64,000 nucleotides of DNA from Escherichia coli (GCF_011045215.1 NZ_CP049201.1), one strand, 5' to 3'. Positions 33,008 to 38,252 are shown, numbered from the stretch's first letter. Translations and numbers: made by a program. Notes: generated by a model from the sequence alone, not told the origin.

Positions 33008-34420
33008 TCAGACGGCGGTTTTATCCTGTTTACCCGGAATAATGAACAGAATTGATAATAGTGCCAGTAATCCGAAGCTAACATTCAGCCACAGTCCGGC
33101 AGCACCGGCTGTATTAATATTTCCGAACGCTGAGTAAACGGCCAGAGACAGTGCCACCCCGATGGCTCCCCCCAGAGAGCTGGCCAGTTTGTAAATTCCG
33201 GCGGCCGCGGCGGCTTTTTCCTGCGGTGCGCTGGATACTGCTATATAGGTTGATGGTGTGGCATAAATTCCCAGTCCGAGGCCGAACATGGCATAACCGA
33301 CCATCACCAGCATTTTATACATCATCAGATCTTCAATACTGGTCATGGACATCAGCATGACACCCACAGACGTGATAACAGTACCAGCAATCATGGGTAG
33401 TCGGCCTCCAAAGATAAACAGAATTTTCTGTCCCACCGGTAGCAGGAGTAGTACTGCTGCTGCATAGGTAATGGTCATGGTGGCGACATCTCCGGTACTT
33501 AAGCCACGCCCCTCCAGCATATAGGTATTAACAATCACCATCGCACCGGCAATTGCGTTAAGCAGGAAATTGGATAATGTAGCGCCCAGATAACCACGGG
33601 ATTTAAACAACGAAAAATCTACCAGCTGGATAATGCCTTTAACAGGTAAGCTTTTTTCAACGAAATAGAAACTGATTAAACCAACAATTGATAAACCTGT
33701 TGTTGTGAGGAACTTAATATCACCATATCCCCAGCTTCGGCCTTTGGATACCGCCAGTACCAGGCATATCAGTGAGGCAATAAATATTGTGGTACCACAG
33801 GTGTCAAATTTTTTGTCATTCACTGGTGCTTTTGATTCCGGAGGTCCGAGAATTAACAGTAAACCAAGAATGGACACACCAGCGTTGATCCAGAAAATTG
33901 CTCTCCAGCCAAGAGCAGGTTCTATCAAACCTGCCAGTATGACGCAGAAACCAGAGCCTCCCCATGAACCGACGGACCACCAGGTTAATGCTGTTGCCTG
34001 CTTTTTACCTTCAAACCAGGTTTTCATCAGAGCAATGGTTGACGGCATGATACAGGCGGCAGAAATTCCCTGTAGCCCGCGTCCAATAATTAATATTGCT
34101 GTATCAGGAGCTAACGCAACAATCGCAGAGCCTGCCACGCTTAATACCACACCAATAAACGAAAAACGCATCCTGCCGAAACGATCCGCCAGTGCCCCGG
34201 CCGCCACAATACAGGCTGCAGAAAAGAGAGGAGTGATTGACGCGGCGAAGTTTAATAAATCCATTTTTGCCGGATTGTTTGTAATGTTAAAATCTCTGGC
34301 GATAACAGGGAGTAATGCCGCCTGCATTGATTGTGCAAACATCCAGAAAGTTAATACCAGTAAGACAATGCCGAAAATGAGACGCCCGCTCCCCTGATAA
34401 GTTATTTTTTCTGACTTCAT
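33008..34420 (-). CDS. MFS transporter (14-TMS drug:H+ antiporter-like)
   Basis: Highly hydrophobic throughout; MFS motif ALADRFGRM; ATG at 34420 with GGAG upstream. Confidence 0.8.
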   Translation of the reverse strand: MKSEKITYQGSGRLIFGIVLLVLTFWMFAQSMQAALLPVIARDFNITNNPAKMDLLNFAASITPLFSAACIVAAGALADRFGRMRFSFIGVVLSVAGSAIVALAPDTAILIIGRGLQGISAACIMPSTIALMKTWFEGKKQATALTWWSVGSWGGSGFCVILAGLIEPALGWRAIFWINAGVSILGLLLILGPPESKAPVNDKKFDTCGTTIFIASLICLVLAVSKGRSWGYGDIKFLTTTGLSIVGLISFYFVEKSLPVKGIIQLVDFSLFKSRGYLGATLSNFLLNAIAGAMVIVNTYMLEGRGLSTGDVATMTITYAAAVLLLLPVGQKILFIFGGRLPMIAGTVITSVGVMLMSMTSIEDLMMYKMLVMVGYAMFGLGLGIYATPSTYIAVSSAPQEKAAAAAGIYKLASSLGGAIGVALSLAVYSAFGNINTAGAAGLWLNVSFGLLALLSILFIIPGKQDKTAV

Positions 34421-34568
34421 TGAGTTCTCCTTTACCTGATATTTATCGTTCACCCGGGAGTGAAATAACCAGCATGAATATCCCTGATATAAACAGGTAC
34501 TTTATAGCGACAGGTTTTGTGATTATTACAGATGGTTACTTTTATATATAATGTATCGATGAATACAG

Positions 34569-35726: not shown

Positions 35727-35927
35727 AAGTTCTCCTTTTCGTTGGCTGATTATTGAGCATATCATTTTGAAACATGTATAAAGGGGAATACAGATATATT
35801 CATGATGAATATAGTGTTTTTTTATGTCCGGATTCTGGTTGTTATTTCACCTGCATCAAAAATTACCAGGTTCATTTTTGATATTCTGTGAAGAAAACTA
35901 TTATTCACGGAATAAAAATGTAATAAA

Positions 35928-38252
35928 ATGAAAGAACAGCCAGAAGTGTTTTCAGTTCAGTTTCTCAATGTCATCAATTACCGGTTCATCCGTGACAATC
36001 GCCTGTATCTGATGCTGGTACTGAAAGGAAGTGTCAGATTATCAGTGGCAGGAAATACACCGCTGAAGGTTAATAAAGACCAGGTTCAGGTTATAAACCG
36101 TAACAGTGACTGGCAGATTGAAGGAGACCAGGACAATATAACCGTCGTTGTGGCTATTTCCCCGTGGTGGTTGTTCCACAGTGGAGAAGTGCTGAATCAT
36201 ACCCATTTCAGTATCGGACATCACCCTTCTCCCGGACAGGCGCGGCGGCTCAGCCAGTTGATTAGTCGTATTGCGATACTGTGGCTCAAAAAAAAAGATG
36301 TCTGGCAACTGGAGCTCAACAAGGCGTTACTCGACATCCTGTGCATTCTGATCCAACACTTCAGGTGCGAGCCAGCCACGGTACCGGTGACAGATTTTAC
36401 CTCGCGGACAAGCAGGGTGGTTGATCTGATTGAAAAGTGTTTCCGGGAAAAACTCACCCTGCAGTATGTGGCTTCCAGGGTTCATGTTACGGCCGCTCAT
36501 CTTTCCCGGCAGTTCACTCGTGATATCGGGATGAATTTTCGTGATTTCCTGACAGGTATACGTTTTAATCATGCTGTACAGGAAATTGCACTGACCACCC
36601 GGCCAATCACAACAATTGTCAGTGACTGCGGCTTCAGTTCTTACCGACGTTTTTTAACGTTGTTTCGTCATCGTTACGGTGTTCAGCCTGGTGTCTGGCG
36701 CCATGACGTGAAAGCTGGCAGGATCCGTTTTATCAGGAACCAGACGTTACAGGATCAGGGGGCCTGTGACACCCGCCAGATAAATCTGGTTGAACTGTTC
36801 TCTTTGCTGTCTGATATCCCTGACGATACCCGGTCGTCCCCGGAACTGGAGAATGTGCAGTGTGGTGAAGAAATTCATCTGCAATCCGGGACAACCCGTG
36901 GAGCGATAACACCCCGCCATTATGTGATCTCTGTTGGTAGTTTTGATGAGTTGCTGAAACAGCATATTCAGCAACAGTTATTGTGTCTGAAAGAGCGTTT
37001 TCCGGATTTTCAGGTGGAGGTCAGGGTTCCACTTTCCGATAATTTTTTTCCACGCAATATCGATACAGGTGAGATCATTCCCACCTGGTCACCCTGGAGT
37101 AACCTTGATATTGCCTGTAACTTTCTCAGGCATCTGGGTATAAGTCTTATGATTCGCCTGGAACCGGAGGTCAGTACATTTCACAACAGCGAATTTGTGG
37201 TGCAGCTAAGAGAATTCATCACCCACAATGTGTTACTTCTGGGCAGAAAGTATGTACAGAGCTGGTCGTTTATCCTGGATATGCGATCGCTAAAAATGGT
37301 GCAAATGACAAAGCGGCTGGCGTTCAGTCAGACGCTACTGAATATTGTACGGGATTTGTTGCCCGGGGGGCGGGTTGGTCTGACGCTGTGCCGGTACGAA
37401 GATTATGAACAGCTGTTTTCCGGTGGACTGTCTGAACAGATTGATTTTATTGGTCTGTCACTTTATCCCAACGCGTGTTGTAATTTTATGCACGAAGCTG
37501 ACTATACACCACCGGAAAATCATGATGTGATTTGCCAGCAACTGGAAGGCGTGCTTCAGTTGTTTCGTAAACACAAGGTTTCCTGTCCGTTGTATCTCCA
37601 GTCGTGGAGTACGTTGACCGGAAATACGCTGATGACTAATGGGCGGTTCTTTCGTGGTGCCCTGTTGATGGATATGTTGCTGGTGTTACCAAAAGAGATC
37701 AGTATGATTGGACTGTATCTTAATTCCGAATTACAGCACGAGGTATCATCAGCACGGGCGATCGAAAATAACAGTCTGTCGTTGTTTTTTACCGCCACCA
37801 CCAAACGACCGATTTTCCATATAATCCTTCTCAGGGAACGCCTGCAGGGGGCTGTAATTGCTTCCGGCTCTGGCTGGGTCGCGACGCGAGAAAACAATAC
37901 TTATCGGCTGTTGTTACTCAATCCGGTGACCATCAATCCGTTACTGTCAGTTCAGGAACATTTGCTGAATGACTACAGTAAACGTTTCAGTGTACATTTT
38001 TTGCCTGGGCAGGCGGGGATCTGGCGTATTAAGCAGTGGATGTTCGACCAGAAGAATGGCGCGCTCTATTACCAGTATGGGCTGCATCCAACTCTTTACG
38101 ATCGTGATGAAGAAACCATGGACTATATCAGCCAACGTTCAGCACCGACTTTTTGTGTACGTGATGAACGAATTTCCGGAGAGTGGAACACCGATATAGT
38201 AATGGATATTAATGCGGTCTGTTTTCTGGAGTGGGTCAGGGTGGCTGATTAA
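35928..38252 (+). CDS. AraC-family regulator fused to a ~500-aa C-terminal domain of unknown function
   Basis: Continuous 774-aa ORF; residues ~150-260 are a typical AraC HTH pair; residues ~270-774 unrecognised. Confidence 0.6.
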   Translation: MKEQPEVFSVQFLNVINYRFIRDNRLYLMLVLKGSVRLSVAGNTPLKVNKDQVQVINRNSDWQIEGDQDNITVVVAISPWWLFHSGEVLNHTHFSIGHHPSPGQARRLSQLISRIAILWLKKKDVWQLELNKALLDILCILIQHFRCEPATVPVTDFTSRTSRVVDLIEKCFREKLTLQYVASRVHVTAAHLSRQFTRDIGMNFRDFLTGIRFNHAVQEIALTTRPITTIVSDCGFSSYRRFLTLFRHRYGVQPGVWRHDVKAGRIRFIRNQTLQDQGACDTRQINLVELFSLLSDIPDDTRSSPELENVQCGEEIHLQSGTTRGAITPRHYVISVGSFDELLKQHIQQQLLCLKERFPDFQVEVRVPLSDNFFPRNIDTGEIIPTWSPWSNLDIACNFLRHLGISLMIRLEPEVSTFHNSEFVVQLREFITHNVLLLGRKYVQSWSFILDMRSLKMVQMTKRLAFSQTLLNIVRDLLPGGRVGLTLCRYEDYEQLFSGGLSEQIDFIGLSLYPNACCNFMHEADYTPPENHDVICQQLEGVLQLFRKHKVSCPLYLQSWSTLTGNTLMTNGRFFRGALLMDMLLVLPKEISMIGLYLNSELQHEVSSARAIENNSLSLFFTATTKRPIFHIILLRERLQGAVIASGSGWVATRENNTYRLLLLNPVTINPLLSVQEHLLNDYSKRFSVHFLPGQAGIWRIKQWMFDQKNGALYYQYGLHPTLYDRDEETMDYISQRSAPTFCVRDERISGEWNTDIVMDINAVCFLEWVRVAD

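Follow-up and report, generated by a model that had tools for sequence, protein, structure and literature searches.

A distant AryK-family regulator with a GH39-derived domain beside genes for a NorC-type transporter and an M20 amidohydrolase in Escherichia coli

The locus at positions 33,008 to 38,252 of a 64,000-nucleotide stretch of Escherichia coli DNA (GCF_011045215.1, NZ_CP049201.1; this whole stretch is referred to as the window) encodes a major facilitator superfamily (MFS) transporter, an amidohydrolase of the M20 family, and an AraC-family protein of 774 amino acids (aa). It raises the question of what a regulator more than twice the usual length for its family would control, and what the roughly 500 residues that follow its DNA-binding region would do. 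A reading made from the sequence alone (the sequence-only reading) had drawn attention to this length, and on that point it was borne out. Comparison of the locus with homologous loci, protein family models, and known structures leads us to propose, with a probability of about 0.6, that the protein is a one-component regulator of the AryK family that would govern a divergent operon for taking up and hydrolyzing a compound with an amide linkage, probably one of the N-acyl amino acids. The additional domain appears to be derived from glycoside hydrolase family 39 (GH39), to have lost its catalytic residues, and probably to act as a sensor or dimerization module. The genes and the region between them, including for two genes the longest open reading frame (ORF) and the start preferred here, are as follows.

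33008..34453, minus strand: MFS ORF, longest ORF; Pfam MFS_1, 164 bits.
33008..34420, minus strand: NorC-type DHA2 MFS transporter, 470 aa, with the RefSeq start; second gene of the minus-strand operon.
34569..35765, minus strand: M20 ORF, longest ORF; Pfam Peptidase_M20, 153 bits, and M20_dimer.
34569..35726, minus strand: M20D aminoacylase-type amidohydrolase of 385 aa; leading gene of the minus-strand operon.
35727..35927, no strand: divergent intergenic control region, 201 bp, between the M20 start and the regulator ATG.
35928..38252, plus strand: AryK-family AraC regulator, 774 aa; whole gene including the stop.

The starts that give proteins of 385 and 470 aa are those of the RefSeq copy, which comes from an identical E. 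coli module, and of all homologous loci, and the motif AAGGAGA lies 5' of the M20 ATG at 35726; the longest-ORF starts of both genes are probably too long. With the M20 gene beginning at 35726, the intergenic region extends from 35727 to 35927. The M20D gene lies directly upstream of the MFS gene in the same operon, and this pair occupies the minus strand at the left, with the regulator on the plus strand at the right. The two units are thus divergent, and not convergent as the sequence-only reading had described them, and the promoters of both sides therefore fall within the shared intergenic region.

Evidence for a functional tie between the regulator and its neighbors, which the sequence-only reading had also assumed, comes from gene order, as M20 and MFS genes adjoin the regulator gene in 11 of 11 homologous contexts. 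These were drawn from Entomohabitans, Mixta, a Klebsiella metagenome-assembled genome, two metagenomic gamma-proteobacterial contigs, a locus encoding a 33%-identical homologue, Vagococcus, Staphylococcus, Enterococcus, and an ENA contig, and they span the Enterobacterales to Vagococcus and Staphylococcus at about 20-75% identity. Beyond the module, the flanks of the 11 contexts are unrelated to one another and often contain insertion sequence (IS) elements. The identity of the window MFS protein to its regulator-linked orthologues is 45% in Vagococcus, 41% in Staphylococcus, and 43% at the locus of the 33%-identical homologue, and that of the M20 protein is 65-86% among the proteobacterial loci and 33% to Staphylococcus. 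At the Staphylococcus locus, a true AryK is followed by orthologues of NorC (E 1.5e-201) and of the amidohydrolase with PDB entry 4ewt (E 3.6e-204). The E. coli module corresponds, in the Enterobacterales, to this aryK-norC locus of Staphylococcus, which has received little study.

The family to which the regulator belongs is clear from its match to the NCBIfam AryK model (NF047455), which aligns residues 8-769 with positions 5-755 of 759 at an E value of 2.6e-93 and is likewise matched by all 59 sampled relatives. The score of the regulator, 313.6 bits, is below the equivalog cut-off of 850, whereas the staphylococcal protein P0169, a true AryK, scores 1208 bits, and the two proteins are 21.8% identical over their full length. 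By sequence, then, the regulator is a distant member of the AryK family and, by the NCBI criterion, not an AryK orthologue. It shares with AryK of Staphylococcus aureus (SAA6159_00084) a length class (774 and 759 aa), the order of a cupin-like domain, an AraC helix-turn-helix (HTH), and a GH39-like domain, and a neighborhood of a NorC-type MFS transporter and an M20D amidohydrolase. It differs in that the target genes are divergent here but co-directional and downstream in Staphylococcus. The 2014 description of AryK presents an AraC/XylS regulator by which alpha-hemolysin expression is potentiated (PMC3922988); its known role is limited to modulating toxin expression, with neither ligand nor direct targets described (PMC3922988). 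A natural aryK allele, that of S. aureus JKD6159, has a stop at codon 271 and a loss-of-function phenotype, and repair of the codon reverses this phenotype. The codon falls exactly at the boundary between the HTH and the GH39-like domain, and the loss of function in the truncated allele suggests a requirement for the C-terminal domain. In the AraC family members of S. aureus, the HTH has been described as N-terminal and the C-terminal region as divergent, with a presumed role in sensing signals (PMC7241556). One of them, Rsp (NF033869, 701 aa), is also a long AraC protein with a large divergent C-terminal region and an N-terminal HTH; the regulator studied here matches the Rsp model in the HTH region only (residues 161-262, 51 bits). 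A SigB-dependent antisense RNA, S22, has been reported over SAOUHSC_00056, a "putative AraC family regulator" (PMC4818034), which may or may not be aryK.

It would be a simple explanation of the long ORF that an assembly or sequencing error had fused two genes, and the sequence-only reading had allowed for a frameshift of this kind. Such a fusion is extremely improbable and a frameshift can be excluded, as two independent complete E. coli genomes contain the same unbroken ORF, every homologue down to ~17% identity is likewise unbroken, more than 200 clusters share its length and domain order, and models made with AlphaFold2 (AF2) are consistent with a single chain. Full-length homologues with 37-99% identity occur in Entomohabitans, Mixta, Klebsiella, Citrobacter, and Vibrio. 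A profile search with the C-terminal 500 residues among 1.84 billion cluster representatives found 527 clusters (at 50% identity) with E <= 1e-3 and 211 with E <= 1e-10; nearly all of the 527 are proteins of 730-810 aa with the domain at about 270-775. The architecture had been taken for an unusual one, and this did not hold, given the 527 clusters with the domain and the end-to-end match to the NCBIfam AryK model. The layout is the usual one in a family that Pfam-type annotation and NCBIfam both recognize, one member of which has been studied phenotypically. The C-terminal domain is essentially a known partner of the AraC HTH, with Pfam GH39 found in 33 of the 59 sampled relatives in addition to the AryK model, and this is an outcome that the sequence-only reading had itself named as a refutation.

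The domains of the regulator and the segments discussed below, all on the plus strand, are located as follows.

35949..36212, plus strand: N-terminal beta-rich (cupin-like) domain, residues about 8-95; AF2 strands at 8-77.
36405..36713, plus strand: AraC/XylS double HTH, residues about 160-262; HTH_18 at 182-259, AF2 helices at 159-262.
36714..36860, plus strand: interdomain linker, residues 263-311; poorest conservation in the protein, and low predicted local distance difference test score (pLDDT).
36861..37808, plus strand: GH39-derived (beta/alpha)8 barrel, residues about 312-627, predicted to be catalytically disabled.
37281..37286, plus strand: codons M452-R453, aligned with Asn159-Glu160 (the acid/base motif, NEP) of XynB.
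37581..37685, plus strand: residues 552-586, YLQSWSTLTGN...FFRGALL, from beta7 to alpha7; most conserved segment of the protein.
37602..37604, plus strand: codon S559, aligned with the nucleophile Glu277 of XynB; end of predicted strand beta7.
37809..38249, plus strand: C-terminal beta-sandwich of the GH39 fold, residues 628-774.

The identity of the C-terminal domain rests on three independent lines of evidence, from Pfam annotation of relatives, profile alignment, and structure models. Pfam Glyco_hydro_39 (PF01229) follows the HTH in the 33 relatives mentioned above, with a best E value of 1.2e-41; a scan of the 774-aa protein itself with PF01229 gave no match. An alignment of 92 family sequences compared by hhalign with XynB of Thermoanaerobacterium, the sequence of which was checked as identical to PDB 1px8, gave a probability of 100% and an E value of 1.9e-40 over 448 columns spanning both the barrel and the beta-sandwich. 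A first full-length AF2 model, built from 18 close homologues, was mediocre (pLDDT 74); the top Foldseek matches obtained with it were all GH39 xylosidases (E 3e-18, target TM score 0.68-0.70). A C-terminal model from the 92-sequence alignment reached a pLDDT of 91.9 and a predicted TM score of 0.91. When the C-terminal domain was compared by sequence with the PDB, either as the single sequence or as a seven-sequence profile, nothing useful was returned, and the sole match, to a pyruvate kinase at an E value of 1.6, was rejected as a chance hit. The suggestion that the extra ~500 residues are hydrolase-like was thus confirmed in the form of a GH39-derived domain, and the structure prediction and similarity search that the sequence-only reading had called for recovered the fold of a GH39 xylosidase.

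In XynB, the acid/base is Glu160 in the Asn-Glu-Pro motif of clan GH-A that follows strand beta4, and the nucleophile is Glu277 at the end of beta7; both positions were checked in the sequence. The domain shares with the GH39 beta-xylosidases (XynB, PDB 1px8/1w91) and alpha-L-iduronidase the (beta/alpha)8 barrel and the C-terminal beta-sandwich. It differs from these enzymes in its low identity to them (13-15%), the replacement of the Glu nucleophile by Ser, the absence of the NEP motif, its fusion behind a DNA-binding domain, and the lack of glycan genes nearby. The position of S559 is S, T, or A in close homologues, and the nucleophile column of the 92 family members contains E in 30, D in 22, S in 13, and N in 10; none of the 92 has an Asn-Glu pair in the acid/base columns. 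The nearest acidic residue, D451, stands at the end of predicted strand beta4, two residues before R453, and is D or E in close relatives. It was considered as a register-shifted acid/base and rejected, given its lack of conservation across the wider family and the loss of the nucleophile in any case. From these alignments, the C-terminal domain is a predicted GH39-derived pseudoenzyme that has lost both the nucleophile and the acid/base motif. A protein that is truly bifunctional, with a GH39 domain that is still catalytic, would account for the retention of the entire fold, for the Glu found at the nucleophile column in 30 of 92 sequences, about a third of the wider family, and for the placement of D451, which several close homologues replace by Glu, where predicted strand beta4 ends. 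We nevertheless regard it as very improbable, as the window protein and its clade have S, T, or A at the nucleophile position, the Asn-Glu pair is gone family-wide, the Pfam GH39 model is blind to the window protein, and the neighbors in the loci examined are never glycan-utilization genes.

The segment that held the nucleophile has been kept with particular care. Residues 552-586 have a mean top-residue frequency of 0.87 in the close clade, compared with 0.68 for the HTH, and of 0.54 compared with 0.47 family-wide, and W560, T562, G565, R576, and A578 are nearly invariant. We infer from this pattern that the segment may form a pocket retained for binding rather than for catalysis.

The DNA-binding part of the protein is recognized by Pfam HTH_18 at residues 182-259, with 63.7 bits against a cut-off of 33.6. 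This is the sole Pfam match of the whole protein, and the N-terminal region has none. The description of the first ~260 residues as a standard AraC sensor and HTH pair therefore stands for the HTH, and the sensor part, which lacks a Pfam match here, is proposed from the AF2 model and from relatives. In the AF2 model, residues 8-77 are beta-rich, AraC_binding is found at the N-terminus of 20 and Cupin_2 at that of 17 of the 59 sampled relatives, and the N-terminal half matches ToxT, Rns, and CsvR in Foldseek. In common with the classical AraC/XylS regulators (AraC, RhaS, ToxT, and Rns), the protein has a double HTH, probably an N-terminal cupin-type domain, and a position beside the genes it would control. 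It departs from them in that its HTH is central (160-262 of 774) and followed by 500 more residues of an enzyme-derived domain, and not C-terminal as in the ~300-aa AraC/XylS proteins, and in that the repeat at its candidate site is inverted and not direct.

The candidate site and a second palindrome lie in the control region at these positions.

35855..35882, no strand: candidate operator, the palindrome ATCAAAAAT-N10-ATTTTTGAT with the core ATCAA-N18-TTGAT; perfect 9-nt arms.
35795..35813, no strand: second palindrome, TATATTCAT-G-ATGAATATA; kept in the closest relatives only.

The first of these is located 46-73 bp upstream of the regulator ATG, and its core occurs once in the 64-kb window, where 0.09 occurrences would be expected. 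Homologous loci have intergenic regions of 186-204 bp, and the palindrome is kept across six that were aligned, with the exact core at the equivalent place in four of them (L001, L002, L005, and L006) and one-mismatch variants in the other two (L003 and L004). We infer that this palindrome is a candidate operator of the regulator.

The best PDB match of the MFS protein is 7d5p, aligned over its full length with an E value of 4e-112 and 379 bits, the next being QacA with 84 bits. Entry 7d5p is NorC of S. aureus (PMC8257674). The NorC vestibule residues W23, Q27, M116, W139, W144, and K398 are all kept in the window protein, which, like NorC, has Gln in place of the Asp of transmembrane helix 1 (Q27) and Lys in transmembrane helix 13 (K398). 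On these sequence features, the transporter qualifies as a NorC orthologue. With TIGR01891, for which the cut-off is 153.75 bits, the M20 protein reaches 329.5 bits, and it is below the cut-offs of all equivalog models compared (CpsA and DoeB2). Its relatives in the PDB are 4ewt of S. aureus, which is the best match, YxeP, the IAA-amino-acid hydrolase ILL2, and N-acyl-glutamine aminoacylase. The motifs HGCGHD, PAEE, HNMP, and HNPGYDF, which we take to be the metal-ligand motifs of the M20 family, are intact, as in the 4ewt orthologue, and no signal peptide was found in the protein. Compared with NorC (7d5p) and the SACOL0085 amidohydrolase (4ewt) of S. aureus, identity is about 41% for the MFS protein and 33% for the M20 protein, and the pair studied here differs in its Gram-negative host, its location on a mobile island, and its M20-then-MFS order. 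In S. aureus, one microarray found SACOL0085 (M20) and SACOL0086 (a drug transporter) to be down-regulated together. Relatives of NorC mostly keep an amidohydrolase alongside, and the natural substrates of NorC are described as unknown by the authors who reported this (PMC8257674).

Taken together, these observations are consistent with a mechanism in which the NorC-type transporter would import a small molecule with an amide linkage, the likeliest candidates being N-acyl amino acids and related conjugates. The compound or its hydrolysis product would then be bound by the regulator, the most likely site being the pocket that once held the active site of the now dead GH39 barrel, and the regulator, probably as a dimer on ATCAA-N18-TTGAT, would switch the M20-MFS operon on, after which the cytoplasmic M20D enzyme would cut the amide. 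In this scheme, the direction of transport, the class of ligand, the domain that senses it, activation as opposed to repression, and binding to the palindrome are deduced rather than observed. The GH39 barrel is favored as the sensor because of the pattern of conservation and the codon-271 allele of aryK. Taken further, this would make the GH39 pseudoenzyme a new class of small-molecule sensor in one-component regulators, its old pocket binding the amide-linked nutrient that is imported by the NorC-type transporter and cut by M20D. This nutrient may be an N-acyl amino acid or else a conjugate of the glyco- or acyl- type. This last proposal is a tentative one, to which we would give somewhat less than even odds.

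The same regulon could also be served by a different division of labor within the regulator, in which the GH39-like domain is only a dimerization module or scaffold and the N-terminal cupin-like domain senses the effector. The frequency of AraC_binding (20/59) and Cupin_2 (17/59) among the relatives and the resemblance of the N-terminal half to the ligand-binding regulators ToxT and Rns would fit such an arrangement, as would the palindromic site, which suits a symmetric dimer, and the oligomeric state of GH39 xylosidases. Set against these are the lower conservation of the N-terminal domain (0.57, compared with 0.61-0.87 for the GH39-like domain) and the finding that the former nucleophile strand and loop are the most conserved part of the protein, which would be hard to explain for a generic interface. 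Neither point is decisive, and we regard the N-terminal domain as a doubtful but serious candidate for the sensor. A greater change to the interpretation would be a module for drug or toxin resistance, in which a toxic compound is sensed, a NorC-type efflux pump is induced, and the M20 protein is a detoxifying amidase. The transporter is indeed nearest to NorC, for which a contribution to fluoroquinolone resistance has been reported, and belongs to the DHA2 efflux family, and the module travels on plasmid or island DNA with flanking IS elements. A regulator, a transporter, and a cytoplasmic hydrolase together are, however, the usual layout of a unit for uptake and catabolism. The acidic vestibule residues of the DHA antiporters are absent in NorC, and the window protein shares the vestibule residues of NorC. 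NorC gave no protection against norfloxacin or tetraphenylphosphonium (TPP+) in E. coli (PMC8257674), and the same authors link its natural substrate, which they hold to be unknown, to the amidohydrolase (PMC8257674). A resistance function thus appears improbable.

Several points weigh against the proposal of an AryK-family regulator of an uptake and hydrolysis operon, or against parts of it. Descriptions of NorC as a pump for quinolone efflux would suggest that the transporter exports its substrate and does not take it up. Sensing could instead be the task of the N-terminal cupin-like domain, and ligand binding by the GH39-like pocket, like the regulatory function of this protein and of any Gram-negative member of the family, is predicted from sequence. 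A promoter element, or a site for some other factor, could equally account for the palindrome, AraC-family sites are not typically arranged as inverted repeats, and a simple consensus scan called no sigma-70 promoter in the intergenic region. The publication on AryK reports broad metabolic effects and is silent on the neighboring genes (PMC3922988). Finally, the Enterococcus and ENA contig loci use other MFS and M20 subfamilies, and for this reason the linkage, as judged by sequence, is to classes of enzyme and transporter and not always to orthologues. This hints that different members of the family govern different amide or amino-acid conjugates. In the Enterococcus locus (L010, 8512-12813), the regulator is followed by an MFS gene, the alpha and beta genes of an L-serine dehydratase, and a gene for a 475-aa M20 protein, and in the ENA contig (L011, 2612-11022) the regulator lies amid three M20 genes and a BT1-type MFS gene.

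Within E. coli, the distribution of the module is narrow. Of 5426 complete genomes, only 2 carry it, strain C5 on its plasmid A and RM8082 on the chromosome, and the 5.2-kb module is 99.8% identical in these two independent genomes, which are both of cattle origin. The three-gene unit, probably a self-contained catabolic module, is carried on a mobile island. Elements of the IS66, IS110, and ISL3 types flank homologous modules in two metagenomic loci, which suggests that the unit moves horizontally, and because it is rare in E. coli and IS-flanked in several hosts, the module behaves as a horizontally transferred niche trait. In the window, an ISEc8/IS66-family element with transposase, TnpB, and TnpA (40242-42177) bounds the module at the right. 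At another locus (L012, 5001-6485), a 494-aa stand-alone GH39-like domain (P0018, 54% identical) occurs without an HTH and without the M20/MFS pair; its right flank agrees with the Mixta locus in gene order, and the stand-alone copy looks like a deletion remnant of the module.

Other genes of the window were recorded in passing. Just upstream of the module, a plus-strand gene (29240-32152) encodes a 970-aa protein with a UvrD/SF1-helicase core and C-terminal ankyrin repeats, named "ankyrin repeat domain-containing protein" in RefSeq, and the island around it also contains YfjI/DUF3987, YagK/YfjJ, and inovirus-Gp2-type genes. Directly downstream of the regulator, a low-GC stretch (about 35%, 38372-39878) holds an unannotated ORF of 166 aa on the minus strand (38372-38872), with no Pfam match, and a gene for an EAL-only protein (38976-39878), the RefSeq version of which is shorter, at 252 aa. 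Further away are a set of type II secretion genes (83-7658, with GspE at 784-2277, GspF at 2277-3500, and GspL at 6480-7658) and a chaperone-usher fimbrial operon (43714-50411, with the usher at about 45053-47629 and a PapB/FocB-type regulator in the identical plasmid copy). The remainder comprises genes for a GT4 glycosyltransferase (55023-56126), a DUF4056 protein (58650-59795), and a protein with PAPS-reductase and DUF3440 domains (62201-63451), as well as two ORFs of 376-433 aa without a Pfam match (15616-16917, minus strand, and 18912-20042, plus strand).

The regulator-NorC-M20 module extending from Staphylococcus to the Enterobacterales and the demonstration of the GH39 pseudoenzyme are new with respect to the searchable literature, in which we found neither a statement of a link between AryK and NorC nor a description of an AraC-GH39 fusion as a sensor. 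The three-way link between AryK-type regulators, NorC-type transporters, and SACOL0085-type M20 enzymes bears both on the substrate of NorC and on the signal of AryK, and the regulator itself provides an example of an enzyme fold turned into a regulatory domain. If the GH39-derived domain does sense the amide-linked nutrient that the transporter imports and M20D cuts, this would reveal the long-sought class of physiological substrate of NorC and NorB as well as the signal to which AryK, a modulator of virulence in S. aureus, responds, and the copy on the E. coli island would offer a genetically easy system for finding the ligand.

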